Position numbers and translations under genes: made by a program. From IMG/VR virus record IMGVR_UViG_3300043436_000696: 20,000 nucleotides of DNA; one strand, 5' to 3'. This document shows positions 1 to 17,914 of the stretch, in pieces. The notes under the pieces were generated by a model. The model was not told the DNA's origin. It worked only from the letters and a program-made list of their open reading frames with translations, and ran no database searches. The DNA is from an uncultured virus (IMG/VR IMGVR_UViG_3300043436_000696). Its lineage: Duplodnaviria > Heunggongvirae > Uroviricota > Caudoviricetes. The first letter of the stretch is position 1. The number at the start of each line of letters is the position of its first letter.

Positions 1-65
1 ATCCATACTGCTAAGAATGGTACTAACATAGTTACTGTGAATACACTCATTTTAATCTTTTTCAT
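1..65 (-). CDS. Partial small membrane/secreted protein (runs off window start)
   Basis: ATG at 65-63 on the minus strand reads MKKIKMSVFTVTMLVPFLAVW... with no stop before the window edge. It has a basic N-terminus plus hydrophobic stretch, and the same upstream ACCCCTGA motif as its two neighbours. Confidence 0.7.
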   Translation of the reverse strand, partial: MKKIKMSVFTVTMLVPFLAVW

Positions 66-87
66 AATATATTATTTTATAATACAA

Positions 88-95
88 TCAGGGGT
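88..95 (-). promoter_or_regulatory. Conserved ACCCCTGA motif, copy 1 (candidate early phage promoter)
   Basis: Plus strand TCAGGGGT at 88-95, 22 nt upstream of the ATG at 65. Identical octamer at 416-423 and 665-672. Confidence 0.6.
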
Positions 96-103
96 AAATT
101 CTA

Positions 104-141
104 ACTTAATGACTACTACTTTTCAGTAGTAATCGTTAAGT
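104..141 (-). other. 17-pair hairpin with GAAA tetraloop overlapping the stop codon of the 92-aa ORF
   Basis: 104-120 pairs with 125-141. On the minus strand there is one G-U pair and one mismatch. The loop TTTC (121-124) reads GAAA on the minus strand. Confidence 0.65.
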
Positions 142-394
142 CTTCATCATATGCCCACTTACCAGTAGCTAGGCTATTACCTATCTCTTCACCATACATG
201 TGGTCTAATCCCTTCTCATCTTCAAAGAGAATAGTGTATGTAGGTCTACCCTCTACTGTATCAGATGGGATAATCAACATAGATCCAGGTGTATTGTGTG
301 CACACACAGGTTCATTAGTACAGCTGTAAGCTAAAACAGCTATTACAACTAATACTGTAAAAATCTCAGGAATAAAGTACTTTAAGTTTTTCAT
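116..394 (-). CDS. Small putative lipoprotein / membrane protein
   Basis: 92 aa. The N-terminal hydrophobic segment ends in LAYSC (Cys25), resembling a Bacteroidota signal peptidase II site. Ends TAG TAG. Confidence 0.7.
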   Translation of the reverse strand: MKNLKYFIPEIFTVLVVIAVLAYSCTNEPVCAHNTPGSMLIIPSDTVEGRPTYTILFEDEKGLDHMYGEEIGNSLATGKWAYDEDLTITTEK

Positions 395-415
395 AATATA
401 TATTTTATATATACA

Positions 416-423
416 TCAGGGGT
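416..423 (-). promoter_or_regulatory. Conserved ACCCCTGA motif, copy 2
   Basis: TCAGGGGT at 416-423, 21 nt upstream of the ATG at 394. Confidence 0.6.
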
Positions 424-434
424 AGAATACTACA

Positions 435-464
435 TGATAATCCCCCTAGAAAGGGAGATCATCA
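435..464 (-). other. 13-pair hairpin overlapping the stop codon of the 65-aa ORF
   Basis: 435-447 pairs with 452-464. The two plus-strand A/C mismatches become G-U pairs on the minus (coding) strand. 4-nt loop. Confidence 0.6.
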
Positions 465-643
465 TCAACTTCTACAGTCTCTACACTACTACTAATAGGC
501 AATATAATATTCTTTTCTTCCACCTCCTGATAGTATGCTTCTTCTTCCAATCTACAATTCATACAAGTATGTGATGGTTCCCACTGATTCTCATCAGGTA
601 AGTAGTATGCTGGTGTACACGTACATTCATTAATCTTTTCCAT
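446..643 (-). CDS. Small acidic Cys-containing protein with SSB-like C-terminal tail (DDDLPF)
   Basis: 65 aa. Contains CxC...HxCxxC, an acidic tail ending VDDDLPF, and the upstream ACCCCTGA motif. Confidence 0.7.
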   Translation of the reverse strand: MEKINECTCTPAYYLPDENQWEPSHTCMNCRLEEEAYYQEVEEKNIILPISSSVETVEVDDDLPF

Positions 644-664
644 AGTATTTATTTTTAATGTACG

Positions 665-672
665 TCAGGGGT
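665..672 (-). promoter_or_regulatory. Conserved ACCCCTGA motif, copy 3
   Basis: TCAGGGGT at 665-672, 21 nt upstream of the ATG at 643. Confidence 0.6.
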
Positions 673-847
673 TTCTTCCTCTCTCCCCACAGCTCATAGG
701 GGTACACACCCAATTTCTTTCTGCCGGGGGGATTTTTCTCTAAAGGTAACGCCACCGCATAACACGGAGTAAAATTTTATGGGTAGAAAAAAATTGTACA
801 CCCATGGGGATATCTTTTCATGGAGTTACGTATTATATAATATTAAA

Positions 848-879
848 TTTGTGTAGTTTAAACTTTTTAAGTATATTAT
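848..879 (+). promoter_or_regulatory. Bacteroidota sigma-type promoter (TTTG-N20-TATATTAT)
   Basis: TTTG at 848-851, a 20-nt spacer, then TATATTAT at 872-879. Resembles the Bacteroidota -33 TTTG / -7 TAnnTTTG consensus. The same geometry recurs at 17883-17914. Confidence 0.55.
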
Positions 880-896
880 AATGTAAACCAACTGTT

Positions 897-1118
897 ATGA
901 GTAAGAAAAAATACGTAGAAGGAGAAACCTCTAGTCATTATATACAGACTAAGGATAGTTATGGTAGACCCGTTAATATTCCCGTTGTGGATGTAAGGGA
1001 TGGTATTGGGGAAAGGATGTTAGCCATGGCTATTATGAAGGCTACTAATAGAAGTAAGTATATCACTTACAATGAGTACCATGTATCTAGGAAACCAGTT
1101 AATAACTTAAGTGAGTAG
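897..1118 (+). CDS. Hypothetical protein
   Basis: 73-aa ORF. First gene after the putative promoter, with an AAACCAA-N5-ATG leader. Confidence 0.6.
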   Translation: MSKKKYVEGETSSHYIQTKDSYGRPVNIPVVDVRDGIGERMLAMAIMKATNRSKYITYNEYHVSRKPVNNLSE

Positions 1119-1431
1119 TAATATGAATCTACACGAATGTAATATACATTGTCATACGATACATCCCGACCAAATGGATCTTCTTAATATAGATGATGAC
1201 CAGGGTAAGTGGATGCCGTTTATATTTGATCTAGATATAGTGGTTGCAGCTAAACAGACGTCAGAAGACGAAGAAGAGTTAGTATATAACGCTACCACTA
1301 TTTTCACTGACCACGGGGATACGTACATTATAGACACTCCCTATCACGAATTCTTTAAATTATGGAGATCTCATATTGACCCGACCAGTGGTAGACTTTC
1401 TACTAATGGTACAGGGGATTTAGAGTTTTAA
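1111..1431 (+). CDS. Hypothetical protein
   Basis: 106-aa acidic ORF with a GTG start overlapping the previous gene. Alternative ATG at 1123. Confidence 0.65.
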   Translation: MSSNMNLHECNIHCHTIHPDQMDLLNIDDDQGKWMPFIFDLDIVVAAKQTSEDEEELVYNATTIFTDHGDTYIIDTPYHEFFKLWRSHIDPTSGRLSTNGTGDLEF

Positions 1432-1462
1432 ATAATTGATTATAAAATAAAAACCAAATATT

Positions 1463-1807
1463 ATGTCTGAAGAACAAAAAGTTCCAACAAAAGAAGAGAT
1501 CATCTCTTTTCTTAATGAGCAAATTGAAGTGAAAGAACTTCAATTGAAGCTACAAGAGATCAACGCAGGCTTGGCAGTTGCCAGAGCTGAAGAGTTAAAA
1601 GCCCTAGCATTTATTGGACAGATGACTACCCAAGCGGGTAAGAAGCCTGATCAACCAGAAGGCACCCCTCACACAATCACTCAAGAAGACTTGGATAACA
1701 ATCCAGAGTTAGTTGAAGCTGGTGTGGAAGTGGGTGATGATATTATTATACCTACAGCTGCAGAGCAAGCTGAAGGAGTTCCTGCTAAAAAGTTAAAAAA
1801 GAAGTAA
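1463..1807 (+). CDS. Hypothetical protein with N-terminal coiled coil and basic tail
   Basis: 114 aa. Heptad-like N-half, an acidic HTITQEDLDNNPEL...G.EVGD segment, a KKLKKK end, and an AAACCAA-N5-ATG leader. Confidence 0.75.
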   Translation: MSEEQKVPTKEEIISFLNEQIEVKELQLKLQEINAGLAVARAEELKALAFIGQMTTQAGKKPDQPEGTPHTITQEDLDNNPELVEAGVEVGDDIIIPTAAEQAEGVPAKKLKKK

Positions 1808-1815
1808 ACACCCTT

Positions 1816-2247
1816 ATGACAACTCTTTACAAACTACGAGACTATAAGTTAGCTTACAAGTTTGAGAAGGAACATCCTAAGCCTATCCAATGGGACGAGA
1901 AGTATAAAACATACGTTTTGTCCCAAGGGGATGGGATTCAGGGTATCTGGTTTAAAGATAAAGATACTCTTATTGCTGAAATCATAATGTCTTGGACAAG
2001 TGATAATGTAGTGAAAGTAGATTCTTTTACAGTGATGCCTTCACATAGAGGTCAGGGCCTAGGTCACGATCTTATTAAAGAAGCTTTAGATTGGGCTACA
2101 GAATCAGGATTTAAATACTTTATAGGTGAAGCTCGTAAAGGAGCATCATGGAAAGTATTCCAAGCTTTTGGAGCAGAAGAAATCTTAGTTTATAAAAACT
2201 GGAGCAAGACAGGTGAAGAGTACGTAAGTTTTAAAATAGAATTATAA
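1816..2247 (+). CDS. GNAT-family N-acetyltransferase
   Basis: Motif A VDSFTVMPSHRGQGLGHDLI (R/QxxGxG acetyl-CoA loop), followed by AS-WKVFQAFG (motif B-like). Confidence 0.85.
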   Translation: MTTLYKLRDYKLAYKFEKEHPKPIQWDEKYKTYVLSQGDGIQGIWFKDKDTLIAEIIMSWTSDNVVKVDSFTVMPSHRGQGLGHDLIKEALDWATESGFKYFIGEARKGASWKVFQAFGAEEILVYKNWSKTGEEYVSFKIEL

Positions 2248-2618
2248 TGGCAATAGTAAACCAAGTAGATAAAAGAATGAGGATGGATACCTGGCAGATT
2301 GTCAAGTATCAAATCCTTACACATTGTTATCTATATAACATACAAGTATCAGAGGCAGATTTAGATTGTCTAACTTATTTAGCAATTGAGGGTGAGCAAG
2401 AACTTACATCTTTTTGTATAAAGGCTCATGCTAAAAATATATTTTCATCAACACAGTCAGTACGTAATTGTTTGACTAAAGCTGAAAAGAAAAACCTTAT
2501 TGTAAAAGAAGGAAAGAACAAAAAGAAGATTAACATCAATCCTATTATGAATGTTCATAGTAAAGGAAATGTTTTATTAGATTATAAATTCTTATCAATT
2601 GAAACCCAAGAAGGCTAA
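2247..2618 (+). CDS. Winged helix-turn-helix-like DNA-binding protein
   Basis: SEADLDCLTYL...SSTQSVRNCLTKAEKKNLIVKEG...ININP has the helix/recognition-helix/wing pattern. TAATG overlap with the GNAT gene. Confidence 0.6.
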   Translation: MAIVNQVDKRMRMDTWQIVKYQILTHCYLYNIQVSEADLDCLTYLAIEGEQELTSFCIKAHAKNIFSSTQSVRNCLTKAEKKNLIVKEGKNKKKININPIMNVHSKGNVLLDYKFLSIETQEG

Positions 2619-3030
2619 ACAATTACTACCAGAGGTAGCAGAATCTGTTGGTCTTCCTGAACAGACAGTAAAAGATATAACAGACTTTTATTGGCAGGAG
2701 ATAAGAAAAAGTCTCTCTAGTTTAAAACATACTAGAGTGCATATAACTAACTTAGGAGATTTTACAATAAAGCATTGGAAGATTGATGATAAGATATCAA
2801 TACTAGAAAAGTTTAAAGAGAATTTTAAACAAAGAGGATTACAAGAAACTGTAACTAGATTTAGAACAGATGAAAAACTCTTTGATTTAAAAGCTATGAA
2901 GAAGATGGTAGAGGAAGAGAGTCAAAGAAAAGATTTTATAAAACTACATAAATTACAATCACATGAGTCTAACAGACAACATAATAAGGATATGGAAGAA
3001 CAAGGGTCAGATTCTGGAGGGAGTAACTAA
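2599..3030 (+). CDS. HU/IHF-like histone-like DNA-binding protein
   Basis: KQLLPEVAESVGLPEQTVKDITDFYWQEIRKSL...RVHITNLGDFTIK matches the HU/IHF pattern of two helices then VxlxxfGxF. TTG start and helical C-terminal extension. IHF homologues are typical of crAss-like structural modules. Confidence 0.75.
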   Translation: MKPKKAKQLLPEVAESVGLPEQTVKDITDFYWQEIRKSLSSLKHTRVHITNLGDFTIKHWKIDDKISILEKFKENFKQRGLQETVTRFRTDEKLFDLKAMKKMVEEESQRKDFIKLHKLQSHESNRQHNKDMEEQGSDSGGSN

Positions 3031-3292
3031 TTCTATATTTAAGAAAGAAGATGTAGAAGAAATTGCACAACAGAGAATGCAGATTTGTAAGAGTTGTGCA
3101 CTTTTTGATATGCAAGGTACAGGTTGCTTAGTAGGAGGAACGGCTCCTTGTTGTGATCAAACTAAAGGAGGTTGTGGATGTAGTCTTACATTTAAAACAA
3201 GATCTTTATCTTCAGAATGCCCTAATGGACATTGGAAAGCAGAAGTAAGTCAAGAAGAGGAAGATGTTATAAACCAAAAATTAGGACTATGA
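2963..3292 (+). CDS. Cys-rich putative Zn-binding protein (DUF6171-like)
   Basis: RMQICKSC...C...CC...CGCSLTFKTRSLSSECPNGHW pattern. Confidence 0.7.
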   Translation: MSLTDNIIRIWKNKGQILEGVTNSIFKKEDVEEIAQQRMQICKSCALFDMQGTGCLVGGTAPCCDQTKGGCGCSLTFKTRSLSSECPNGHWKAEVSQEEEDVINQKLGL

Positions 3293-4128
3293 GTATATTA
3301 ATATTTACACCAGAAGACCATAAGTATAGAAGTATTGATGTAACAGATTTAACTGATTGGTTATCCGTTACTAGTTTTATAGGAAACTTTAAACAACCAT
3401 TTGATGCAGATAAGATTGCTGAGAAGTCAGCTAAGTCTAAGAAGTCAAAATGGTATGGTATGACTCCTGAAGAAATCAAAGCTGCTTGGAAAGCAGAAGC
3501 TCTTCGTGCTACAACATTAGGAACATGGTATCATAATTGTAGAGAAGCAGATATATGTGAACTTACTGATATGGAACGACATGGTAAGACTGTACCTGTA
3601 TTTAAACCTATAGAGAAAGAAGGTTGTAAATATTCTCCATCTCAAAAACTTACAGATGGAATTTATCCAGAGCATTTAGTTTATTTAAAATCTGCCGGCT
3701 TATGTGGTCAATCAGATTTAGTTGAGGTGATAGATGGGGAAGTACATATTACAGATTACAAGACTAATAAAGAAATTAAGACAGAAGGCTTTACAAACTG
3801 GGAAGGAATGGTGACTAAGATGATGTCTCCTGTATCTCATTTAGATGATTGTAACTTTATGCACTATGCATTACAATTGTCTATGTATATGTATATTATT
3901 CTTAAGCATAATCCTAGACTTAAACCAGGAAAGTTAACACTTCATCACATTATATTTGAAGAAGCAGGAAGAGATAAGTTTGATAATCCAATAACAGCTT
4001 TAGATACTACTGGTAATCCTATTGTAAAGGATGTGGTTCCTTACGATGTTCCATATTTAAAAGGAGAAGCAATATCTCTTATACATTGGTTAGAAGATAA
4101 TAGAAAAAAATTAAAACCTAAATACTAA
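3289..4128 (+). CDS. PD-(D/E)XK superfamily (RecB/Cas4-like) exonuclease
   Basis: Motifs SVTSFI, GTWYH, E...GLCGQSDLV, ITDYKT and YALQLSMY. The start is more likely the ATG at 3289 (ATGA overlap with the upstream stop) than 3232. Confidence 0.85.
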   Translation: MSILIFTPEDHKYRSIDVTDLTDWLSVTSFIGNFKQPFDADKIAEKSAKSKKSKWYGMTPEEIKAAWKAEALRATTLGTWYHNCREADICELTDMERHGKTVPVFKPIEKEGCKYSPSQKLTDGIYPEHLVYLKSAGLCGQSDLVEVIDGEVHITDYKTNKEIKTEGFTNWEGMVTKMMSPVSHLDDCNFMHYALQLSMYMYIILKHNPRLKPGKLTLHHIIFEEAGRDKFDNPITALDTTGNPIVKDVVPYDVPYLKGEAISLIHWLEDNRKKLKPKY

Positions 4129-4748
4129 TGATTTTAAATCATAATATTGATAATTTAAAATGTTTAGTAAGAGTATCTCATTTTACTCATAAACCAGAGG
4201 ACCATGATAAATACCATAACGCTTATATATTTGGTATACAATCAATAGCTGGAAAAATATTAACTTTTCATATTATGACTGATTATGGTATGCTAAGAAG
4301 TAGAGTACCAATTAGTGAAATATTTTTAAAAGAACCAACTAAAGATATTCCTTTTCATTTTAAACAGTTATGGGATTGTTTTAGTGAGAATGTATCCGTA
4401 ATTAGTTATGATTATTTATGTGAAAGAAGATGTCAAGTGGTATTAAAAGACGGAATTAAAGTTTGGGCTAGTTATTTATTCACTGTAGATTGGTATAGTA
4501 ATCCTTATTCTGATGAGCCTAGTGATTATAAATGTGGTCATATTTTAGTAGCAGATGATGGATATTTATTATGCCAACCAAATAATAGAATATTTTGGAA
4601 AGATTCTAATTGGATTACAAGACCTTTTCCACTTGACTTAAAAGAAATAAAGGTTGATGTACAGTTACCATCTGTTGAAACAGTTTCTGATAGATGGGTA
4701 AGTGAAGACACTGACTCATATTATTACAATATAAATAAAGAAGATTAA
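4128..4748 (+). CDS. Conserved phage protein of unknown function
   Basis: 206 aa with LWDCFS, YLFTVDW, KCGH and QPNNRI motifs. TAATG-coupled on both sides. Confidence 0.75.
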   Translation: MILNHNIDNLKCLVRVSHFTHKPEDHDKYHNAYIFGIQSIAGKILTFHIMTDYGMLRSRVPISEIFLKEPTKDIPFHFKQLWDCFSENVSVISYDYLCERRCQVVLKDGIKVWASYLFTVDWYSNPYSDEPSDYKCGHILVADDGYLLCQPNNRIFWKDSNWITRPFPLDLKEIKVDVQLPSVETVSDRWVSEDTDSYYYNINKED

Positions 4749-5125
4749 TGTTACTTGTAGAAACATATTTATCAGAGTCTCCAGGAAAAGGATTAGGCTT
4801 ATTTGCTAAAAACTTTATTCCAAAAGATACATTGATATGGCAGTTTGTTGAGGGTTTTGATGTAAGAGTGCATAAAGACAAATATGAAACATTAACAGAT
4901 GTTCAAAAAAACTTTGTAGATACTTATTTCTGGAAAGACGGTGATTACTTATATTCTTCTTGTGATTACTCAAACTTTCAAAATCATAGTGATAATCCAA
5001 ATTCTATTGGGTTAGATGAAGATAAGATGATAGCCTCAAGAGACATTCATCCGAATGAAGAAATATTAGTTTCTTATGAAAGTTTTGATGATGATTTTGA
5101 GTTGTATAAAAATAAATTAAAATGA
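4748..5125 (+). CDS. SET-domain protein (putative protein-lysine methyltransferase)
   Basis: Motifs SPGKGLGLFAKNFIPKDT (GxG), FQNHSDNPN (NHS) and ASRDIHPNEEILVSY (EEIxxxY with catalytic Tyr). No post-SET cysteines. Confidence 0.88.
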   Translation: MLLVETYLSESPGKGLGLFAKNFIPKDTLIWQFVEGFDVRVHKDKYETLTDVQKNFVDTYFWKDGDYLYSSCDYSNFQNHSDNPNSIGLDEDKMIASRDIHPNEEILVSYESFDDDFELYKNKLK

Positions 5126-5634
5126 TAAGACTATTTGATATACAGAACGGACAAGTAACTGCAAGTGAGCATTGTTATACACTTAAGTTTCTTAAGAATA
5201 TAATGACTGAGTATCCTTTAGAATATTTAAAGGTTTACACTTACTTATTTTATATGACTTGTCCTAACCCAGATATAAATCCATTCTTTCATTTTCCAGA
5301 GAGTGAAAAGGAAGAAGTTATATTAGAAGAGGTGGATGGAGACTTTTCTCCTGAAGATGACGCTATAGTGTATGCATTACAGAGATGTAAGCAAATGTAT
5401 GAGACAGAAACATCTAGAGCATATTATGGAATTAAGACAGCTTTGGATAATCTAGGAAAGGTATTAGCCACAGAAACTCCTACATTTGGTAGAGATGGAT
5501 CAGCTGTAGGTATTCTTAGAATAGCAGAAAGATTTGATTCTGTAAGACAATCTTATAAAGGAGTATATAAAGATTTAATGGATGAACAACAGTCTTCTGT
5601 AAGAGGAGGACAAGACTTAGCATATGATCAATAA
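5122..5634 (+). CDS. Conserved phage protein, possible terminase small subunit
   Basis: 170 aa with a helical C-half ending VRGGQDL. Located shortly upstream of terL. The function call is positional inference. Confidence 0.5.
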   Translation: MIRLFDIQNGQVTASEHCYTLKFLKNIMTEYPLEYLKVYTYLFYMTCPNPDINPFFHFPESEKEEVILEEVDGDFSPEDDAIVYALQRCKQMYETETSRAYYGIKTALDNLGKVLATETPTFGRDGSAVGILRIAERFDSVRQSYKGVYKDLMDEQQSSVRGGQDLAYDQ

Positions 5635-5734
5635 TGTAGGGTGGTGAAACTGGCAGACACGCTACCTTGTCTCGGTAGTGTTTAGTTTTGTAAATAAAAA
5701 ACTAGATATGGAGGTTCAAATCCTTCCCCTACAG
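5635..5734 (+). tRNA. Atypical tRNA, anticodon GTC (Asp), with class II D-arm and very long variable arm
   Basis: Acceptor TGTAGGG/CCCTACA; D-arm GTG-AAACTGGCAGA-CAC; anticodon arm CTACC-TTGTCTC-GGTAG; 11-bp variable stem 5679-5708; T-arm GGAGG-TTCAAAT-CCTTC; discriminator G; no encoded CCA. Confidence 0.8.
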
Positions 5735-5748
5735 CTTAATTAAAAATT

Positions 5749-6033
5749 ATGAAAACAGAAGTTTACACAGATTTAGAAATCAAAGAGTTTGCCGCTATTG
5801 GTGAAGAGTTAAGACCAGAATCAGATTACATGAATGATTGGGTATTTCATTTTAACCCTTACAATCAGTTATGGAATGCTATTCCAAGAAACGTTTGTAA
5901 TGAGTATTGGAGTAATAGTCAGCATCATGCTGTATTAAGAAGCAAACATTTAAACACACTATTAGACATGCTTCACCGTACAAAAGGTGATACAGGAATG
6001 ATAGAAGATCTTACACGTGGAGAAATTAGATAA
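5749..6033 (+). CDS. Hypothetical protein
   Basis: 94-aa ORF with an A-rich leader and a WVFHFNPYNQLWNAIPR segment. Lies between the tRNA and terL. Confidence 0.7.
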   Translation: MKTEVYTDLEIKEFAAIGEELRPESDYMNDWVFHFNPYNQLWNAIPRNVCNEYWSNSQHHAVLRSKHLNTLLDMLHRTKGDTGMIEDLTRGEIR

Positions 6034-8236
6034 TAACCATACAATATATAAAGAAGTACCCACTTATAAAGATGGGTCTTGGGATACTACCGTGTTTTAC
6101 TCACGTGAAGAATTCCGAGATTTTCTTATTCCTTTATTTAAGGAACCTGGTCAATATGAGTTTGATGAGGTGAGTACAATATTTAATGCTGAAGGACGTA
6201 AGTTTCAGAAACAAGGTTATTATTGTGCAGCTCCTGTAAAGACTAAAGACTTTATTAAATACTGGGATGATCAAAAAGCTAAATGCCGTAATGGTATTAT
6301 AGTATATAATGGAGAAAAGACATGGTATGTGTCTAGAGATTATTACATGTGGTTAAACTTTCTTCCTATTTATGATAAGGAAGAAAAACGTTTTGACTTT
6401 GCTAAGATAAGAGATGCTCAGTATCACATGGCTCTTTATGAACATCTTGCAGAATTACATTGGAAGCATGCTATTATTTTAAAGAAACGTCAGATAGCTT
6501 CTTCATACTTTCACATGGCTAAGTTAATTAACCAATGGGTATTTGAAGCAGGTGCTGTACTAAAAATAGGTGCTAGTCTTAAAGATTATATTAATGAAAA
6601 AGGTTCTTGGAAGTTTTTAGAAGAATATAAAAACTTTATTAATCAGCATACAGCGTGGTATAGACCGGCTGAGCCAGATAAAGTTGGAGCATGGAACCAG
6701 CAAATTAAAGTGAGAATAGCAGGTAGAGATACTTATAGAGGATTAAAATCTAGTATTAACTCATATTCATTTGAAAAGAATCCTACAAATGGTGTCGGTG
6801 GTCCTGTAACTTATTTTTTTCACGAGGAAGCAGGTATTGCTCCAAGTATGCATGATACATATGGATTCATGAAACCAGCATTAAAGTCTGGTCATATGAT
6901 TACAGGTCAGTTTATTGCTGCAGGATCAGTCGGTGATCTTGATCAGTGTGAACCTTTAAAACTTTATATAGAAAAACCAGAAGAAAATGGATTCTATGGA
7001 GTTAAGTCTGATCTTATAGATAAGAATGGTACAATTGGAATAACAGGATTATTTATTCCTGAACAATGGTCAATGCCTCCATATATAGATCAATATGGTA
7101 ACTCTCTTGTAGAAGAAGCATTAGAAGCTTTAGAAAAAGAGTTTATTCAGTTAAAGAAAGATCTTGAACCGGCAGCATATCAACTTGAAGTATCTCAGCA
7201 TCCTCGTACTATAGAAGAAGCGTTTGCTACTAGAAAACTTTCTATATTTGCTCCTCACTTAATTGCCAAGCAGCAACAACGTATTCAGGATAAAGAATAT
7301 CCTGTAGAATATCTTGAATTATCTAGAGATAGTGAAGGTAAAATTATAGATAAACCTTCTAGAAAGATTCCTATTACAGAATGGCCTATATCTAAAAGAA
7401 CAGAAGATAAAGAGGGAGTGTTGTGTATCTATGAAAGACCTGTAAAAGATCCTACCTTTGGTATGTATTATGGCTCTGTTGACCCTGTAGGTGAGGGTAA
7501 GACCACTACATCAGATTCATTATGTGCCATTTATATTTATAAGAATCCTGTAGAGGTTATAAAAGATGATGGAAATGGTAAAGTGACTAACACAATAGAA
7601 AGAGATAAGATAGTAGCTAGTTGGTGTGGACGTTTTGATGATATTAACAAAACACATGAAAGATTAGAACTTCTTATAGAATGGTATAATGCTTGGACTA
7701 TTGTGGAGAATAACGTAGCTTTGTTTATACAATACATGATTAGTAAGAAAAAACAAAGATATTTAGTTCCTAAAGACATGATCTTATTCTTAAAAGATAT
7801 AGGAGCTAACCGCAATGTATTCCAAGAATACGGTTGGAAGAACGTTGGTACGTTATTTAAAGGAACTGTCTTATCTTATGCTATTGAATTTTTAAAAGAA
7901 GAGCTTGATCATGAGACAACTCCTGATGGAACTATCGTAAAAACTATATATGGCGTAGAAAGAATTCCTGATCCAATGCTTTTAAAAGAGATGCAAGCTT
8001 ACCAAGATGGTGTCAACGTGGATAGACTTGTAGCTTTTTCAGCTTTGATAGCCTTTGCAAAGGTTCAACAATCTAATAGAGGACTGGTTAAACGTGTAGA
8101 AGTTAGCAAAGAAAACTTGGATAACTCCCAAAAATTTAGTAAATTAAATTGGAGCCCCTTTAGACATATGGGTGGTTCTAAAAGAGGGTCAGGAAATAGT
8201 CAACCTCCTAGAAATCCTTTTAAAAATATGAGATAA
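6017..8236 (+). CDS. terL: Terminase large subunit
   Basis: 739 aa. Walker A variant ILKKRQIASS, Walker B YFFHEEAG, coupling-motif-like AGSVG, and RNase H-like nuclease YYGSVDPVGEG...SDS, IVENN, DRLVA. Directly upstream of the portal gene. GTG start is uncertain. Confidence 0.92.
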   Translation: MEKLDNNHTIYKEVPTYKDGSWDTTVFYSREEFRDFLIPLFKEPGQYEFDEVSTIFNAEGRKFQKQGYYCAAPVKTKDFIKYWDDQKAKCRNGIIVYNGEKTWYVSRDYYMWLNFLPIYDKEEKRFDFAKIRDAQYHMALYEHLAELHWKHAIILKKRQIASSYFHMAKLINQWVFEAGAVLKIGASLKDYINEKGSWKFLEEYKNFINQHTAWYRPAEPDKVGAWNQQIKVRIAGRDTYRGLKSSINSYSFEKNPTNGVGGPVTYFFHEEAGIAPSMHDTYGFMKPALKSGHMITGQFIAAGSVGDLDQCEPLKLYIEKPEENGFYGVKSDLIDKNGTIGITGLFIPEQWSMPPYIDQYGNSLVEEALEALEKEFIQLKKDLEPAAYQLEVSQHPRTIEEAFATRKLSIFAPHLIAKQQQRIQDKEYPVEYLELSRDSEGKIIDKPSRKIPITEWPISKRTEDKEGVLCIYERPVKDPTFGMYYGSVDPVGEGKTTTSDSLCAIYIYKNPVEVIKDDGNGKVTNTIERDKIVASWCGRFDDINKTHERLELLIEWYNAWTIVENNVALFIQYMISKKKQRYLVPKDMILFLKDIGANRNVFQEYGWKNVGTLFKGTVLSYAIEFLKEELDHETTPDGTIVKTIYGVERIPDPMLLKEMQAYQDGVNVDRLVAFSALIAFAKVQQSNRGLVKRVEVSKENLDNSQKFSKLNWSPFRHMGGSKRGSGNSQPPRNPFKNMR

Positions 8237-8237
8237 T

Positions 8238-8321
8238 ATGAATTTATTTTCTAATTCTATAAACAATTACTACAGTACAACTACTGGCGGTGTTGTTTTT
8301 TATACCTATACAACTAATTAA
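8238..8321 (+). CDS. Possible 27-aa micro-protein (MNLFSNSINNYYSTTTGGVVFYTYTTN)
   Basis: ATG 1 nt after the terL stop and TAA 5 nt before the portal ATG, filling the intergenic gap. Confidence 0.4.
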   Translation: MNLFSNSINNYYSTTTGGVVFYTYTTN

Positions 8322-8326
8322 GAATC

Positions 8327-11071
8327 ATGCAAGTATATAATGCTCTAGACCTAAAAGCGGGTAAAAAAGCTGATTATAATAAGATGGGTACTCTTACCCA
8401 GCCTATTCAGTTTTTACCTGAAAAAGAAAAAGATGATGAATGGAGAGCTTGGAACCTAGATTGGCTAGAGTTTCAGGGTATGAAACAACTTAGACGTAAT
8501 GCTCGTAGACTTATGAAGAACTATAATCTTGCAAAAGGGATTATAGATAAACAAGACTATATCATAGAAGAAGATAATGAAGTGGCTGATCTTATAGATA
8601 CTTTGACTAAACAAGACGAATCTGCTTTAGAACTTAAGTTTTACCCTATTATTCCTAATGTAATCAATGTACTTACTAATGAATTTAGTAAACGTACTTC
8701 TAAGATTATGTTTAGAGCTATTGACGACATTTCTTATAATGAAATGTTAGAGGAAAAGCGTCAAATGGTAGAAGATGTTCTATTACAACAAGCTCAGCAG
8801 AAGATGTTTATGAACCTTGTTAATCAAGGAATGGACCCTGAATCAGAAGAAGCTCAACAAATGCTATCTCCTGATAGTCTTAGAAGTCTTCCTGAAATTG
8901 AAGATTATTTTAAGAAAGACTACAGATCTATGATTGAAGAGTGGGCTACCCATCAGATGAAGGTAGACACTGAAAAGTTTGGATTACAAGAATTAGAAGA
9001 GCGTGCATTTAGAGACATGCTTATTACAGATAGAGAATTCTGGCATTTTAAGATGAATGAAGATGATTATGAGGTGGAGTTATGGAACCCACTTTTGACA
9101 TTCTATCATAAGTCTCCAGATGTACGTTACATTTCTCAGGGTAACTGGGTAGGTAAAATGGATATGATGTCTGTATCAGACGTTATTGACAAGTTTGGTT
9201 GGATGATGAATCAAGAGCAGTTAGAAGCTCTAGAAGCTATCTATCCTGTAAGATCTGCGGGTTATGCTATCCAAGGTATGCAAAATGATGGTAGTTACTA
9301 TGATCCTACCAGATCTCATGATTGGAATACTCAGATGCCAAGTCTTGGATATAGACAATTTGCATCTATTTATGATAGTAAATTTGGTACAGGAGATATA
9401 GTTGAGTGGATCTTATCTGATTCAGAAGATACTATTGACTTTGGTAAAACTCATTTATTGCGTGTATCTACAATCTATTGGAAGTCTCAACGTAAGGTGG
9501 GACACTTAACTAAGATTACAGAAGAAGGAGAAATTATTCAAGATATTATATCTGAAGAATATAAGGTTACTGATAAACCTCAATATAACACTGTTGTATA
9601 TAAACAAAAATCTAAGGATAACTTAATTTTTGGAGAGCATATTGACTGGATTTGGATTAACGAAACTTGGGGTGGTATTAAGATTGGACCTAACCGTCCT
9701 GCATTCTGGGGTATGAATAATCCAGGAGGTATTAACCCAATATATTTAGGTCTTAATGGTGGTAAGCCAGGTAAGGTTCCTTTCCAATTTAAAGGTGATA
9801 GTACATTATATGGATGTAAACTTCCTGTAGAAGGAGCTGTATTTGGTGATAGAAACACTCGTAGTATTTCTTTAGTGGATCTTATGAAGCCTTATCAGAT
9901 TGGTTATAATATTGTAAATAACCAAATAGCTGACATCCTTGTAGATGAATTAGGTACAGTGATCATGCTAGATCAGAATTCTTTACCACGTCACTCTATG
10001 GGAGAAGATTGGGGTAAGAATAACTTATCTAAAGCCTACGTGGCTATGAAGAACTTCCAGATGTTACCATTAGATACTTCTATTACTAACACTGAGAATG
10101 CTCTTAACTTCCAACACTACCAAGTATTAAACTTAGAACAAACTAACCGTTTGCTTTCTCGTATCAATCTTGCTACATATTTTAAGAATCAAGCGTTTGA
10201 AGTGATTGGTTTGAACCAACAACGTATGGGTCAACAGATTGCTCAACAACAGACTGCTACAGGGGTAGAGCAAGCTATGAATGCTTCTTATGCACAGACA
10301 GAGCAGTATTTTATACAACATAGTGATTACTTGATGCCAAGAGTTCACCAAATGAGAACTGACTTAGCTCAATATTATCATTCTAAAAAGCCGTCTTTAA
10401 GACTTCAATATATTACAGGTAATGATGAAAAGATTAATTTCCAGATAAATGGAACAGATCTTTTAATGAGAGACTTTAATATATTCTGTACTACTAAGAC
10501 TAATCAAAGATCTGTAATGGAGCAATTACGCCAGATTGCTGTTAATAATAATACAACTGGAGCTTCTATATTTGATTTAGGAAACGTTATTAAAGCTGAG
10601 TCTATTGCTGAGTTAACTGGTGTTCTTAAGAATGCTGAAGAAAAAGCTAATGCTCTTAAGCAACAAGAACAAGAGGCTCAACAGAAAATGCAGGAAGAAA
10701 TGCTTGCTTCTCAAGAGCGTCAGAAACAAATGGATCTTCAGTTTAAAGCTGAACAAGCTGACCTTGATAGACAAAATAATATTACTCTTGCTGAAATTAG
10801 ATCAGCAGGTTATGGTGCTATGATGGATATTGACAAGAACCAAGTGTCTGACTATCAAGATGTTTTAGCTAATATTCAGAAGCAGCAAAGTTATCAAGAT
10901 ACAATGAGTTTTAAACGTGAGCAGGAAGTAAATAAGAACGCTACTAATGCTCAGAAATTAGATATTGAGCGTCAGAAGTTACAAACTCAGAAAGAGATTG
11001 CTGATAAACAATTACAGATAGCTAAAGAAAATAAGAACAAATATGATGTTGGAGCTAAGAAGAAGAAATAA
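8327..11071 (+). CDS. Portal protein (crAss-like)
   Basis: 914 aa, after terL. Contains FYPIIPNVINVL, SLVDLMKPYQIGYNIV and a long Q/E/K-rich C-terminal coiled coil (barrel). Confidence 0.88.
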   Translation: MQVYNALDLKAGKKADYNKMGTLTQPIQFLPEKEKDDEWRAWNLDWLEFQGMKQLRRNARRLMKNYNLAKGIIDKQDYIIEEDNEVADLIDTLTKQDESALELKFYPIIPNVINVLTNEFSKRTSKIMFRAIDDISYNEMLEEKRQMVEDVLLQQAQQKMFMNLVNQGMDPESEEAQQMLSPDSLRSLPEIEDYFKKDYRSMIEEWATHQMKVDTEKFGLQELEERAFRDMLITDREFWHFKMNEDDYEVELWNPLLTFYHKSPDVRYISQGNWVGKMDMMSVSDVIDKFGWMMNQEQLEALEAIYPVRSAGYAIQGMQNDGSYYDPTRSHDWNTQMPSLGYRQFASIYDSKFGTGDIVEWILSDSEDTIDFGKTHLLRVSTIYWKSQRKVGHLTKITEEGEIIQDIISEEYKVTDKPQYNTVVYKQKSKDNLIFGEHIDWIWINETWGGIKIGPNRPAFWGMNNPGGINPIYLGLNGGKPGKVPFQFKGDSTLYGCKLPVEGAVFGDRNTRSISLVDLMKPYQIGYNIVNNQIADILVDELGTVIMLDQNSLPRHSMGEDWGKNNLSKAYVAMKNFQMLPLDTSITNTENALNFQHYQVLNLEQTNRLLSRINLATYFKNQAFEVIGLNQQRMGQQIAQQQTATGVEQAMNASYAQTEQYFIQHSDYLMPRVHQMRTDLAQYYHSKKPSLRLQYITGNDEKINFQINGTDLLMRDFNIFCTTKTNQRSVMEQLRQIAVNNNTTGASIFDLGNVIKAESIAELTGVLKNAEEKANALKQQEQEAQQKMQEEMLASQERQKQMDLQFKAEQADLDRQNNITLAEIRSAGYGAMMDIDKNQVSDYQDVLANIQKQQSYQDTMSFKREQEVNKNATNAQKLDIERQKLQTQKEIADKQLQIAKENKNKYDVGAKKKK

Positions 11072-11139
11072 TTATAGCTCTATTATCCAGACCTTAGATG
11101 ATAATTTCTTAAAAAGTGTAAATTTTTAAGATTTAAGTT

Positions 11140-11156
11140 GTATATTTTTAATGTAG
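11140..11156 (+). promoter_or_regulatory. Possible late promoter element GTATATTTTTAATGTA
   Basis: Near-copy of GTATATTATAATGTA at 871-885, located in the portal-scaffold gap. It lacks TTTG at the -33 position. Confidence 0.4.
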
Positions 11157-11181
11157 AGATACACAATAAAAACCAAACAAA

Positions 11182-12462
11182 ATGACTGATAATCAAAACA
11201 ATGTACAGACATCTGTACAACAAGTAGACCTTGACATTGATAGTTGGTTAGGAGCTCCAGGTGCAGACAGTATAGTTACACCTACAAGTGGTAATCCAAC
11301 TGGAGAAACTACAGAGCTTAAACCTAACATCTTTAGCCAAGGAAAACCAGATCTTAGTTTCTTAGATAAAGAAGTTGAAGATACTGAAGAACATAAGGAT
11401 AAAGACGGTAATGTCTTACCTAAAGTTACTAAAGAAGAAACTAAAGACCTTATTGACAGTTTAGATGAAGATTCTAACAATGATCAAGATGAGGATGGAA
11501 AATCTAAAGGTGGAAGACCTAAGACAGAAAAGTCTGGCTTAGTAGAGTTTCTTAAAAAACGTATAGAATCAAAGGAAATGTTTGCCTTTGATGACTATGA
11601 TGAAAGTAAACAAGATCTTGGAGAGTACTTAGGTACACTCTCAGAAAAAGATATAGATGAGTTATGGCAAGCTAACATGGACAATTTAAAGTCTGAAGTT
11701 GCTGCTAAAACTCCACAAGAGTTCTTTGAATCTTTACCTGAAGAACTTCAGTATGCTGCTAAATATGTAATGGATGGTGGTACAGACTTAAAAGGAATGT
11801 TCCAAGCATTATCAGCAGTTGAACAAGTTCGTGAATTAGATCCTTCTAAAGAAAGTGATCAAGAACAGATTGTTCGTCAATATTTACAAGCAAGAGGAGA
11901 ATCTTCTGAAGATATTGAAGATGAGATCTCTACTATTAAAGATTTAGGAGCTTTAGAAAAAAAGGCTAAGCAGTATAAACCTAAGTTAGACCAAATGCAA
12001 GAAGAGATTGTACAATCTCAGATTGCTGAACAAGAAGCTAGAAAAGTACAACAAGAGCAAGCTGCTGAAGCTTATATGAAAAATGTATTTGAAGCTTTAA
12101 GACCTGCGGAAATCAATGGTTTAAAGTTAGATAAGAAAACTCAAGCTCAATTGTACAGTGGATTAGTACAACCTCAGTATCCTTCTATTAGTGGAAGACC
12201 TACTAATCAATTAGGACACTTATTAGAGAAGTATCAGTTTGTAGAACCAAACTATCCTTTAATAGCTGAAGCACTTTGGTTACTTTCTGATCCTGAAGCA
12301 TATCGTCAAAATCTAGTTAAACAAGGTAAGAATCAAGCTGTTGAACAAACAGTTCGTACTTTAAAAACAGAACAATCTAGAAAGACAAGTAGTACTCATC
12401 AAGAAGATGATGAACCTAGATCTAGAAAGTTAGTAAGACCAACAAACATATTTAAAAGATAA
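11182..12462 (+). CDS. Putative capsid scaffolding protein
   Basis: 426 aa. Very acidic disordered N-part, coiled-coil centre and basic C-terminus (RKLVRPTNIFKR). Lies between portal and MCP. Confidence 0.7.
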   Translation: MTDNQNNVQTSVQQVDLDIDSWLGAPGADSIVTPTSGNPTGETTELKPNIFSQGKPDLSFLDKEVEDTEEHKDKDGNVLPKVTKEETKDLIDSLDEDSNNDQDEDGKSKGGRPKTEKSGLVEFLKKRIESKEMFAFDDYDESKQDLGEYLGTLSEKDIDELWQANMDNLKSEVAAKTPQEFFESLPEELQYAAKYVMDGGTDLKGMFQALSAVEQVRELDPSKESDQEQIVRQYLQARGESSEDIEDEISTIKDLGALEKKAKQYKPKLDQMQEEIVQSQIAEQEARKVQQEQAAEAYMKNVFEALRPAEINGLKLDKKTQAQLYSGLVQPQYPSISGRPTNQLGHLLEKYQFVEPNYPLIAEALWLLSDPEAYRQNLVKQGKNQAVEQTVRTLKTEQSRKTSSTHQEDDEPRSRKLVRPTNIFKR

Positions 12463-12501
12463 ACTTTTTATAATTTCTAACCCTTAAAATTAAAAAGCCT
12501 T

Positions 12502-14121
12502 ATGGCAACTCCAGTTTTGAACAATGGTATATTTCTACGTGATACCAGTTATCAAACAAGTTCACACGTAGATTCGTATCACCTTTCAAACTTACTGAAG
12601 TCAGCTGAACCTACAGACTTAGGTCCTGTAGATTTATGGGCTATGGCACAAAAAGTAGAAATGCCTTTGTACCAGATGTCTAGCTTCGGTGGTAAGAACG
12701 TTATCTCTGTAGATAATGCTCGTGGTGAGTACAAATGGCAGATCCCTGTAACTCAGGACTTGCCTTATATCGTGGAAGATATTGAATCAGCAAACCAAAC
12801 TAAAGGTGTTGATGGTCAATCTTTCAAGATTAAATTGAATAAGCGTTCTTTTGGTCATGGTGATATCATCACTTATGACAAGTACAATGGTGTTGAAATG
12901 TACATCACTGCTGACGATATTATCCCAGCTGGTGACGGTTTCATCTACACTGTACAATTGGTAAACAACGACAACGCTAAGTACTTGGATAACAAATACT
13001 TAAAAGTTGGTACTAAAGTTTTCCGTAAAGGTTCTGCAAGAGGTGAATACGGTGAAAGATTCTCTGACATCGGTAACGTAAATGCAGGTTTCCGTGAATT
13101 CTACAACTATGTAGGTGGTGCTGAAGCTCACGTTCATTATTCTGTAAGCTCTAGAGCTGACTTGATGATGAAAGGTGGTATGAAAGCTGATGGTACAGTT
13201 CCTGTAGTTGAGCTTTGGAGAAACTTTGACAAGAGCGTAGATCCTTCTATTTCTAACTTAGAAGACATGGCTTCTAAAATGGGTAAAGATTATGTAAAGA
13301 AAGCTTACCAATCTGGTCAGTTAACTCGTACATTCTTAACTACAATGGAAGCAGCTCATTTGAGCAAGATTGCTAATGACATTGAGACTTACTTAATGTG
13401 GGGTCAAGGTGGTAAAGTTAAGCAAGATGGTCCAGATGACATCAGATTGTCTGTAGGTTTATGGAAGCAGTTAGATAACTCTTACAAGCGTATTTACAAC
13501 AAAGGTTCTTTCAACTTAGATTTGTTCAAGTCTGAAATCTTCAACTTCTTCAATGGTAAGGTTGAATTCCAAGGACCAGATCCTAAGCGTCAGTTGGTTG
13601 TACAAACTGGTTTAGGTGGTATGAAGTTGGTAAATGAAGCTATTAAGCGTGAAGCTATCAACTCTGGTTTAGTAATCAATGCTTCTGAAATTGGTGCTAT
13701 CACTGGTAAAGGTATGGACTTAAACTTTGGTTTTGCATACACTCAATACGTTATTCCTTTCTTAGCTAACGTTAAGTTTGTATTGAACCCAGCGTTTGAT
13801 AACATCCACACTAATGACATTGAGAACCCAATCATTGATGGTTTCCCATTAAGTTCTTACAATTTCATTATCTTTGATATTACAGATAACACTAACGATA
13901 ACATCTACTTGTTAAAGTTAAGTTGGGACAACCAATTAAAGTGGTTCTATCAAAACGGTACAATGGATTACATGGGACGTACACAAGGATTCCAGTCTTC
14001 TGGAAACTTCAACGGATACCGTGTATTCATGACACAAACAATGCCAGCTATTTGGGTTAAAGATCCAACTAAGGTATTGAAGATCGTTATGAGAAACCCT
14101 GTAACTGGTGGCTCATTCTAG
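12502..14121 (+). CDS. Major capsid protein (HK97 fold, crAss-like)
   Basis: 539 aa, positioned after portal/scaffold. Strong high-expression codon bias (AAC, TTC, ATC, CGT, GGT). Contains EYKWQI, LMWGQGG...GLWKQL and IWVKDPTK segments. Confidence 0.9.
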   Translation: MATPVLNNGIFLRDTSYQTSSHVDSYHLSNLLKSAEPTDLGPVDLWAMAQKVEMPLYQMSSFGGKNVISVDNARGEYKWQIPVTQDLPYIVEDIESANQTKGVDGQSFKIKLNKRSFGHGDIITYDKYNGVEMYITADDIIPAGDGFIYTVQLVNNDNAKYLDNKYLKVGTKVFRKGSARGEYGERFSDIGNVNAGFREFYNYVGGAEAHVHYSVSSRADLMMKGGMKADGTVPVVELWRNFDKSVDPSISNLEDMASKMGKDYVKKAYQSGQLTRTFLTTMEAAHLSKIANDIETYLMWGQGGKVKQDGPDDIRLSVGLWKQLDNSYKRIYNKGSFNLDLFKSEIFNFFNGKVEFQGPDPKRQLVVQTGLGGMKLVNEAIKREAINSGLVINASEIGAITGKGMDLNFGFAYTQYVIPFLANVKFVLNPAFDNIHTNDIENPIIDGFPLSSYNFIIFDITDNTNDNIYLLKLSWDNQLKWFYQNGTMDYMGRTQGFQSSGNFNGYRVFMTQTMPAIWVKDPTKVLKIVMRNPVTGGSF

Positions 14122-14134
14122 ATAAATTTACAAT

Positions 14135-14157
14135 CCTGGGAGGTAAAATCTCCCAGG
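14135..14157 (+). terminator. GC-rich hairpin after MCP (terminator-like or mRNA stabiliser)
   Basis: CCTGGGAG-GTAAAAT-CTCCCAGG with outer TACAA/TTGTA pairing. Only a weak U-tract (CTCTTGTAT). Confidence 0.55.
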
Positions 14158-14177
14158 CTCTTGTATCTATACCCTCC

Positions 14178-14196
14178 CTTAGGATAGTATCCTAAG
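14178..14196. repeat. Perfect 9-1-9 palindrome CTTAGGATA-G-TATCCTAAG
   Basis: Directly seen inverted repeat with a single central base. Confidence 0.8.
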
Positions 14197-14203
14197 AAAA
14201 TCC

Positions 14204-14262
14204 AACCTGTTGTATGCAGACTGGCTGATCACCGGAGAGCTTGCAACTCTCAACAGGTTCAA
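14204..14262 (+). ncRNA. tRNA-like three-way structure lacking an anticodon arm
   Basis: AACCTGTT/AACAGGTT closing stem, CAG-ACTGG-CTG arm, GAGAG-CTTGCAA-CTCTC arm stacked on the closing stem, and 3' CAA. Confidence 0.45.
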
Positions 14263-14305
14263 CATTAGGTCGTAAAGACCATGTATAAAAACCAAAAAAC
14301 CAAAT

Positions 14306-15322
14306 ATGAGTAGTGTAACTATCGTGGAGAAGTATCCACAAAACAAAAGATCTAGTATAGCTATTAGACCTTATTTTGATCCTGCAGTAGATAACATGGG
14401 ATTACAAAAGTATGGTTTAAGTCTTTTTGACGGAGCGTTCCACGAGGAACAATTAGCTTGTTTAGAAATTAACGGTATTAAACGATACCTTACAGGTCTT
14501 AATGAGTTTGCTCCAGAAGTAAAGAACTTACCAATGGAAGAACAAGAAGCTAAGATTAAAAGTATCCGTAGTATCATAGTACAGCTTGAACGTGAGTTAG
14601 CTGCTAATATGGTAGATCCATCGGATAAAGAATTTTGGAATAAGATTAAGTTGTTAAAACCAGATAATTCTGAGTTTTGGGATAAGATCAAAATTAGATG
14701 TGGTAATGAACCTGTATTTTTAGAGCCTGATAAAGATCCTTATGATTTAATCAGACTATATGCTATAGAAGCAGGTGGGTTTTCAATAGTTGCTAAATCT
14801 TTAGAAGAAGCTAGAAGAATGCCAGTTCCTCCTAAGTTTTACTTAGATAAATTAGAGGAAACAGCAACACTTAATACTGAAGTTAAGAAGCTGAGAAACA
14901 AAGCGTTATCAGAACTTCAGAAGTTATTTGATAAGAATACCAATAAGTTATTTTATATAGCTAAGGTATTAGATGCAAATAGTGCTCAGTATAAGAAGTC
15001 AACTCCAAATGATATTGTTTATGATAACATGGACAAGTTTATTAATGGAGATTTAGTAGAGAAGAATAAGAAGAAAACAGCTGAAAGATTCCTAGATATA
15101 GTGAATCTTGACATGGAAACGTTAAAAATAAGAGCTATTGTAAAAGATAGTGGTTATTATAAATTCATTGCTACAAAAGCTGACGGATTTATTTACCATA
15201 TGGAAACAACAACCATGTTGGGAAGAACTCCTTCAGATGTGTTAGAGTACCTAAAGAATCCTTTGAATGAGGAGATTTTGGTAGATTTAACTAAAAAAGT
15301 AGAAAAATACTGGAATCAGTAA
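14306..15322 (+). CDS. Conserved crAss-like capsid-module protein of unknown function
   Basis: 338 aa, immediately after MCP. Contains YLTGL, FW...FW, LxPxxDPYDLI and YLKNPLNEEI. Family call is positional inference. Confidence 0.7.
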   Translation: MSSVTIVEKYPQNKRSSIAIRPYFDPAVDNMGLQKYGLSLFDGAFHEEQLACLEINGIKRYLTGLNEFAPEVKNLPMEEQEAKIKSIRSIIVQLERELAANMVDPSDKEFWNKIKLLKPDNSEFWDKIKIRCGNEPVFLEPDKDPYDLIRLYAIEAGGFSIVAKSLEEARRMPVPPKFYLDKLEETATLNTEVKKLRNKALSELQKLFDKNTNKLFYIAKVLDANSAQYKKSTPNDIVYDNMDKFINGDLVEKNKKKTAERFLDIVNLDMETLKIRAIVKDSGYYKFIATKADGFIYHMETTTMLGRTPSDVLEYLKNPLNEEILVDLTKKVEKYWNQ

Positions 15323-15328
15323 TAACAT

Positions 15329-16030: not shown

Positions 16031-16032
16031 TA

Positions 16033-16443: not shown

Positions 16444-16481
16444 ATTTTTTATTTATTTATAACCCTTAAATTTAAAGCCCT

Positions 16482-17828: not shown

Positions 17829-17848
17829 TAGAAATATACTAAAACTTG

Positions 17849-17885
17849 AAGGGAGGGTACTTATGTATCCTCCCTTTTTGTTTTT
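17849..17885 (+). terminator. Rho-independent terminator
   Basis: GGGAGGGTAC-TTAT-GTATCCTCCC followed by TTTTTGTTTTT. Confidence 0.9.
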
Positions 17886-17914
17886 GGAAAAGTCCATAAA
17901 TTATCTTATATTAT
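17883..17914 (+). promoter_or_regulatory. Bacteroidota sigma-type promoter (TTTG-N20-TATATTAT)
   Basis: TTTG at 17883-17886, a 20-nt spacer, then TATATTAT at 17907-17914. Directly after the terminator, with geometry identical to 848-879. Confidence 0.6.

Follow-up and report, generated by a model that had tools for sequence, protein, structure and literature searches.

Early-arm cassettes at the divergent junction

The window, i.e., the whole stretch of 20 kb that was analysed, comprises the late-gene arm and the divergent junction of an uncultured crAss-like phage. Crass-like phages include the most abundant viruses of the human gut. The late arm is of the crAss type and runs on the plus strand from 897 to 19865, with genes for the large terminase, the portal and the major capsid protein (Table 1) preceded by a series of small genes that includes a GNAT acetyltransferase, a PD-(D/E)XK nuclease and a SET-domain protein. 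The latter, a 125-aa protein encoded at 4748-5125 (+) amid the small genes 5' of the terminase, matches the SET methyltransferase domain (Pfam PF00856, E 1.2e-11). Based on the predicted crAss-type capsid protein, terminase and portal, the phage is assigned to the Crassvirales. In tblastn searches, the terminase shows around 25% identity to crAss-like, Flavobacterium and Cellulophaga phages; a megablast search of window positions 1-3000 against phages gave no match, and the nearest record (G001) is a 12-kb fragment that does not contain the octamer described below. Rfam reports a tRNA match at 5635-5734 (+) with 41.2 bits against a gathering score of 29, which has the anticodon-loop letters UUGUCUC and a 28-nt insertion in its variable region. 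ARAGORN found no tRNA anywhere in the window, and the insertion contains a host-type TAGTTTTG box.

Three small minus-strand genes diverge from the late arm at 644-896 and form the head of the opposite, early arm. The original prediction held that a G+C-rich octamer followed by GTA stands 21-22 nt before every one of these genes. The three minus-strand leaders read exactly as they had been quoted: the octamer, ACCCCTGA, precedes 3/3 of the small genes, and no other gene starts on the minus strand of the window; the gaps to the respective ATG are 22, 21 and 21 nt. A GTA is found 1-2 nt behind the octamer in each of the three copies of the window, and in 28 of 55 distinct copies in relatives. 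The window holds three copies of ACCCCTGA in 20 kb, on the minus strand only and with none elsewhere on either strand, where 0.31 copies are expected from dinucleotide-preserving shuffles; three copies were reached in one out of 200 shuffles. Variants with one mismatch occur at chance level (nine matches including the three exact ones, versus 7.9 expected) and are scattered over both strands.

The first two cassettes are complete in the window and each of their genes carries a stem-loop over its stop codon, of -20.8 kcal/mol (z -4.5) in the first and -16.1 kcal/mol (z -5.6) in the second, with 0/200 shuffles folding as well in either case. The octamer itself is single-stranded in predicted folds. 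Copy 1, which has no gene upstream of it on the minus strand, is conserved in six related contigs (L004, L130, L145, L164, L118 and L122). The first cassette protein is conserved in the sub-lineage of the window, not in the more diverged L071 or L162, and its cysteine pattern suggests a small zinc-binding fold. The slot of the second cassette holds different genes in relatives. One contig, L164, is 99.3% identical to window positions 1-743 and has a fourth octamer-headed cassette past the left end of the window.

Table 1. Features of the early-arm head, the divergent control region and the late arm in the 20-kb window.
Feature	Position	Strand	Remarks
Third cassette gene, 5' part	1-65	-	69 aa in L164
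ACCCCTGA copy 3, heads third cassette	88-95	-	22 nt 5' of ATG 65-63
Stem-loop over second gene's stop codon	105-140	-	ends 9 nt before next octamer; without T-run
Second cassette gene, 92 aa ORFan, hydrophobic N-terminus	116-394	-	no Pfam or PHROG family
ACCCCTGA copy 2, heads second cassette	416-423	-	21 nt 5' of ATG 394-392
14-bp stem-loop over first gene's stop codon	434-465	-	ends 10 nt before next octamer; no T-run after it
First cassette gene, 65 aa ORFan, CxC...CxxC pattern	446-643	-	no Pfam or PHROG family
ACCCCTGA copy 1, heads first early cassette	665-672	-	divergent intergenic region, 21 nt 5' of ATG 643-641
Divergent control region, early arm (-)/late arm (+)	673-896	.	second box, C-runs, conserved block, host-type box
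Second box ACCCCTA	697-703	-	in divergent control region, with several C-runs
Conserved block	745-796	-	kept even in relatives with an unrelated early arm
Host-type TAAATTTG box	844-851	+	before first plus-strand gene
Large terminase	6017-8236	+	PHROG phrog_6681, 2.5e-67
Portal	8327-11071	+	PHROG phrog_6547, 3.7e-94
Major capsid protein	12502-14121	+	Pfam Crass_capsid, E 1.7e-30

Octamer arrays in related contigs

A protein search with the PD-(D/E)XK nuclease in viral contigs yielded 462 related stretches, of which 80 were kept. Most of these protein-found loci (69/80) are without the octamer and six have single, chance-like copies, leaving five with 2, 3, 8, 8 and 10 copies, which without exception lie on the strand that encodes the small-gene arm. 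The whole records of L004 (42.6 kb) and L071 (22 kb) contain eight and ten copies, respectively, in each case all within around 2 kb and with none on the other strand. Metagenome contigs were searched with a two-copy pattern, which returned at least 119 stretches; inspection of 29 loci with a G+C content below 0.42 added at least six contigs as true array members, all short, with 4-14 copies each. Four further candidates (L120, L132, L186 and L193) were rejected as repeats of other kinds. The same two-copy pattern in viral contigs gave 20 stretches, comprising four already-known contigs and 16 that were rejected as tandem repeats, coding repeats or chance pairs. No match to the exact 32-nt leader was found in viral contigs, and a search with the exonuclease of L071 revealed no further array.

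The original prediction had proposed a scan beyond the window for enrichment on one strand at early genes. Across the window and ten related contigs (101 kb), the early strand carries 70 copies versus none on the other strand, and 67 of the 70 come from the ten related contigs. The enrichment is found at the head of the early arm only, as copies are confined to its first 2-4 kb. L005 was left out of this count as its octamer contexts equal those of L004, and the pattern-found contigs were selected for having two copies, with strand, place and any further copies unselected. The octamer is retained both in close and in diverged relatives: L130, with late-arm proteins 97-100% identical to those of the window, has eight copies, and in L071 and L162 the octamer is unchanged despite late-arm proteins that are only 53-83% identical. 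Its flanks carry little information, except for a pyrimidine at +8, G/T at +9/+10 and an A-run from +17 to +19. Comparison thus strongly supports, and confirms, that the observation is real: the motif exists, it is specific to one strand and one place, it is conserved across diverged phages and it heads cassettes of a recurring anatomy.

Two side observations concern other repeats. The first repeated 8-mers found as alternative octamers in other relatives were rejected, as they turned out to be antisense coding words. The octamer also occurs in arrays with a 66-nt period and 24-48 copies in the G+C-rich viral contigs L094, L095 and L105; these resemble tandem or CRISPR-type repeats and have no connection with the early-arm cassettes.

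The junction also marks where early arms have been exchanged. L278 encodes a nuclease 97% identical to that of L071 and has a late arm with 83-88% DNA identity to it, but its early arm is unrelated and lacks the octamer. Similarly, L008 and L013 are 83-89% identical to the window at the nucleotide level and yet have an unrelated early arm without the octamer. The similarity of the window to relatives with a different early arm begins at 744-806, and in the case of L071 the break lies at about 3860. Phages with alike late arms stop resembling each other precisely at the divergent junction, so that entire early arms are swapped there. In G010, a relative that is 96% complete, the junction lies between a 39-kb arm, with small and replication-type genes, and a long structural arm that includes a giant polymerase gene. 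In the junctions of the wider phage group (L001-L079), one or two tACCCC boxes occur before the first early gene, around 26-33 nt apart, and in many cases the second of them forms the 3' arm of an inverted repeat or palindrome (GGGG(T)...ACCCC).

Cassette anatomy and the promoter reading

The distance from the octamer to the following gene is narrowly distributed. The octamer lies exactly 21 nt before the start codon (ATG) of an ORF of 30 or more codons in 20 of the 55 distinct copies, and 19-22 nt before one in 31; for ten copies, no ORF of at least 30 codons is present within 52 nt. The median distance to the downstream ATG is 21 nt with a standard deviation (SD) of 7.6 nt (3.7 nt for gaps of up to 30 nt), compared to a median of 27 nt and an SD of 25 nt from the upstream stop codon to the octamer. 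The octamer position tracks the downstream start and not the upstream stop. Clustering of the 59 cassette ORFs yields 35 clusters; the octamer stands before unrelated ORFans as well as before ORF-less units, and its repeats are not remnants of gene duplication. In four ORF-less copies checked by eye the A-run from +17 to +19 is absent and the octamer is retained, which suggests that the A-run goes with the start of translation and that the octamer serves another function.

Most octamer copies come just after a strong stem-loop. In L162, where 21 terminator-like sites are found versus 2.4 +/- 1.4 in shuffles, a hairpin with a T-run ends 11-26 nt upstream of the octamer in 10 of the 14 copies. 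The order of the cassettes varies at octamer boundaries between close strains, for instance, A-C-D-B-F in L130, A-C-B-I-F in L004 and A-K-D-B-L in L122, and it also differs among the window with L164, L145 and L118. A search of 13 early-arm proteins of L004 against Pfam and PHROGs returned families of unknown function only, plus one sub-threshold zinc-finger match. The same contig contains, at 3530-3898 (-), two octamer-headed units of around 150-215 nt that have no ORF and are each closed by a stem-loop. Both units are conserved in L130 and L122 as well, three strains in all, and are candidate small early RNAs, for which an Rfam search of the ORF-less L004 cassettes gave nothing near threshold.

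A plausible model of the repeated unit follows from this anatomy. The promoter core would be ACCCCTGA with a pyrimidine and usually a GTA shortly behind it, and one such core would start each small cassette at the head of the early arm. Behind it would come an A/T-rich leader of around 21 nt, then either a small gene for an ORFan protein or a short RNA without an ORF, and finally a stem-loop at which transcription would stop a few bases short of the next octamer. With an octamer at the start and a stem-loop at the end of each unit, the cassette genes would be transcribed one by one. That the octamer acts as a promoter is likely, since it is oriented and non-palindromic, heads each unit, follows a structure expected to end transcripts and occurs even where no protein is encoded behind it. 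These features agree less well with the octamer being an operator, a processing site or a ribosome signal. A point against a promoter-terminator arrangement is that the stem-loops of the window itself lack T-runs, and a strict terminator scan of window positions 1-2000 found 0 sites.

The primary-sigma promoter of Bacteroidota consists of TAnnTTTG around 7 nt before the start and TTTG near -33. As had been predicted, the octamer does not resemble it: the minus strand has no TAnnTTTG box near the cassette genes, its nearest one being at 5399, whereas the plus strand has two such boxes in intergenic DNA (844 and 5683) and another just before the next gene start (18518). The octamer is not the usual promoter of the host. 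Moreover, upstream stem-loops that end 9-26 nt before the octamer leave little room for a two-box promoter, and sigma-70-type matches near the cassettes are not above the level of shuffles (12 versus 8.8 +/- 2.8). The claim of one promoter per gene in the early region is thereby well supported by comparison, i.e., by strand, place, neighbours, structure and the absence of a host box.

Public RNA data touch this region as well. A search of RNA runs returned six with small shares of the words searched for, and the four that were examined contain assembled contigs of relatives at 85-99% identity, from which starts, strand and level are not readable. In three RNA runs from two studies, contigs end at 674, two bases upstream of copy 1. 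This position was rejected as a transcript 5' end, as other contigs in two of the three runs cross the octamer, strain variation breaks contigs there and DNA may be present in the libraries.

Candidate polymerases and comparable systems

The original prediction assigned the putative promoter to an RNA polymerase that is carried in the virion and injected. For the relatives, the premise of such an enzyme holds: a giant ORF of 3082-4552 aa that matches gp66 of phage phi14:2 is present in 5/5 long related records, and the one such ORF that was translated, that of G010, reads GSDFDIDKM and so contains the DFDID motif of two-barrel polymerases. Sigma-70 region 2 was found neither in four near-complete relatives, with a control that was positive in 10/14 genomes, nor in the 42.6-kb record of L004. 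The T7-like polymerase family (PF00940) gave no match in a search in which the control was likewise without any match. None of the array contigs also carries the gene for a polymerase; the longest (42.6 kb) terminates among tail fibres. At the divergent junction, the array occupies the head of the arm that lies opposite the capsid genes, a position that corresponds to the start of the early module in phi14:2. With no host-type box, and with the octamer located where the early transcription of such phages begins, a giant gp66-like virion RNA polymerase is its most likely reader, although this assignment is weaker than the promoter role itself. It is the leading assignment given that four near-complete relatives have a gp66-like polymerase and no sigma factor. 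Overall, we put the probability that ACCCCTGA is the conserved core of a phage-specific promoter, read most likely by a gp66-like virion RNA polymerase, at about 0.5. Of the predicted early promoter, one promoter per gene is well supported, and the virion polymerase is a best guess.

In vitro, the injected polymerase of crAss-like phages is active only on DNA that is single-stranded or denatured, and we know of no promoter for it. A more elaborate version of the gp66 reading would give the stem-loops a double duty. Located 9-26 nt upstream of nearly every copy, the stem-loop would end the previous transcript and, when extruded in supercoiled DNA, might also offer gp66 its single-stranded entry; other lineages would have other signals, each matched to their own polymerase. 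We hold this combination of a two-barrel polymerase promoter, a stem-loop with two roles and lineage-matched signals only tentatively, at somewhat less than even odds. Several observations speak against a virion polymerase: most relatives have no motif (69/80 protein-found loci), similar late arms are paired with motif-free early arms (L278, L008/L013), and the early transcripts made by gp66 in phi14:2 are reported to have no detectable upstream motif in common (10.1101/2020.03.07.982082). If the pairs of the L278 and L008 type share alike polymerases, the octamer is not what that polymerase needs and would be read by something else, which could be the host enzyme together with a factor from the early arm.

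Such a promoter element for the host RNA polymerase, redirected by a small phage protein that is synthesised or injected as infection starts, or using an alternative sigma factor of the host, with no part for the injected polymerase, is an unlikely explanation. It would fit with the exchange of the early arm and its motif as a module against similar late arms, as such exchange is more readily understood with a recognising factor that the early arm itself encodes or that the host supplies. Many octamer copies have, 2-4 nt upstream, a loose TAGAAT- or TAGTAT-like hexamer with a GTA (the latter is at -10 or -7 in 18/55 distinct copies), a sigma-70-type scan site ends at 98, just before copy 3, and the first cassette protein has the CxC...CxxC pattern. 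Yet this protein is not conserved across the sub-lineages that share the octamer, no sigma-70 region 2 was detected in the four near-complete relatives and the L004 record, and there is neither a TAnnTTTG box nor room for a -33/-7 pair; the sigma-70-type matches near the cassettes do not exceed those in shuffles. Quite improbable is an action in RNA, in which the octamer would be a processing, stability or translation signal in the 5' leaders on one long early transcript. Some phages do cut early polycistronic RNAs between genes, and the octamer is strand-specific, at a fixed distance before the ATG and predicted to be single-stranded. Against this, the hairpins and T-runs that precede 10/14 copies of L162 imply that transcripts should end before each octamer, ORF-less units follow 10/55 distinct copies, the A-rich box from +17 to +19 is missing in four ORF-less copies that keep the octamer, and 21 nt are a long way from the start codon for a ribosome-binding signal.

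Two further explanations have very little probability. Modelled on the class II terminators of T7 RNA polymerase, the octamer might make the phage polymerase pause or terminate without a hairpin, as a backup to the stem-loop of the preceding gene. Its strict orientation and its constant location a few bases downstream of a stem-loop agree with such a role, but copy 1 has no upstream gene on its strand and the distance to the upstream stop is far more variable than that to the downstream ATG (SD 25 versus 7.6 nt), making this highly improbable. The least probable of the explanations weighed here is that the octamer is solely a recombination site for cassette exchange and plays no role in expression. 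Cassette order and content do differ between close strains at octamer boundaries; however, no recombinase was seen in the early-arm parts examined, recombination needs neither a fixed ATG spacing nor a strict orientation, and in the comparable arrays of T4-type phages shuffling is described as a by-product of a repeated regulatory sequence (PMC2839356).

The latter arrays, the PeSL (promoter-early stem-loop) cassettes, consist of a promoter, a small ORFan gene and a stem-loop and are shuffled between relatives (Arbiol et al. 2010, PMC2839356). As in the PeSL cassettes described there, the arrays analysed here place small, mostly ORFan early genes between a repeated putative promoter and a stem-loop terminator, and cassettes are inserted, deleted or replaced between close relatives at the repeats. 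By contrast, the promoters of PeSL cassettes are described as strong, sigma-70-like and read by the host polymerase, whereas the cassettes of the window have no host-type box and a single G+C-rich octamer, and the phage is not of the T4 type but a crAss-like podovirus of Bacteroidota. The repeat with its stem-loop and the cassette turnover are thus shared with PeSL cassettes and the sigma-70-like promoter is not, with the promoter function of the octamer being putative. Phage N4, an injector of its own giant polymerase, provides the second parallel. Its early promoters P1-P3 are read by the injected virion RNA polymerase, a T7-like single-subunit enzyme, and contain a G+C-rich heptamer centred at -11 in a small hairpin; these hairpins have conserved stem and loop bases and are extruded by supercoiling (PMC4496689). 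Both systems have a short, G+C-rich, phage-specific signal before the genes that are, or here would be, the first to be expressed, but according to that account N4 has three promoters, compared to 8-14 copies here, and the candidate enzyme here is a two-barrel polymerase. A conserved promoter hairpin of the N4 type was not found among the octamer copies: most are without a partner arm for the octamer, and only some first copies pair it with an upstream GGGG(T). Unlike the hairpins reported for N4, the neighbouring stem-loops vary in sequence and length and look like terminators.

A third parallel is phi14:2, a phage of the same order with the same genome plan, i.e., an early arm opposite the capsid arm. 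In this phage, the arm opposite the capsid genes is early and transcribed by injected gp66 despite rifampicin (Drobysheva et al., preprint 10.1101/2020.03.07.982082). No other crAss-like phage is known to have been studied in this way, and the preprint reports highly expressed non-coding early RNAs and no common motif upstream of early transcripts (10.1101/2020.03.07.982082). The gp66-like polymerase described there is matched in relatives of the window, and the ORF-less cassettes parallel the non-coding early RNAs. In the first 10 kb of phi14:2, no repeated G+C-rich 8-mer and no octamer array were seen. Thermus phage P23-45, which differs in phage type and host, has a tape-measure-fused two-barrel virion polymerase that makes pre-early transcripts (PMC10770324); the likeness, as far as described in this source, lies in a virion-carried two-barrel polymerase with a fold related to gp66 that transcribes the first-entering genes. 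A literature search for an early promoter of crAss-like phages found no paper.

If the gp66 reading is true, ACCCCTGA would be the first sequence-defined promoter for the two-barrel virion polymerase family. A short, invariant, many-copy motif with a clear cassette anatomy offers a concrete template for testing how this enzyme finds its starts. The motif also shows that the region for host takeover in crAss-like phages is built of exchangeable cassettes of a putative promoter and a terminator, as in T4-type phages, and such exchange helps to explain the strain variability of this region and the assembly breaks that occur there. Other early arms of the group show other recurring elements. In L028 (1700-4400, -), L078 (4500-7400, -) and L286 (6000-7500, -), early cassettes are headed by TCCTTTAnTAAA..GTA and then TTCTTAAyC, and in G010 the TCCTTTAnTAAA..GTA signal was detected in no part of the early arm beyond its first 3 kb. 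A TTAAyC..TTAAA box, located 10-20 nt before early-arm ATGs, is common to many relatives.
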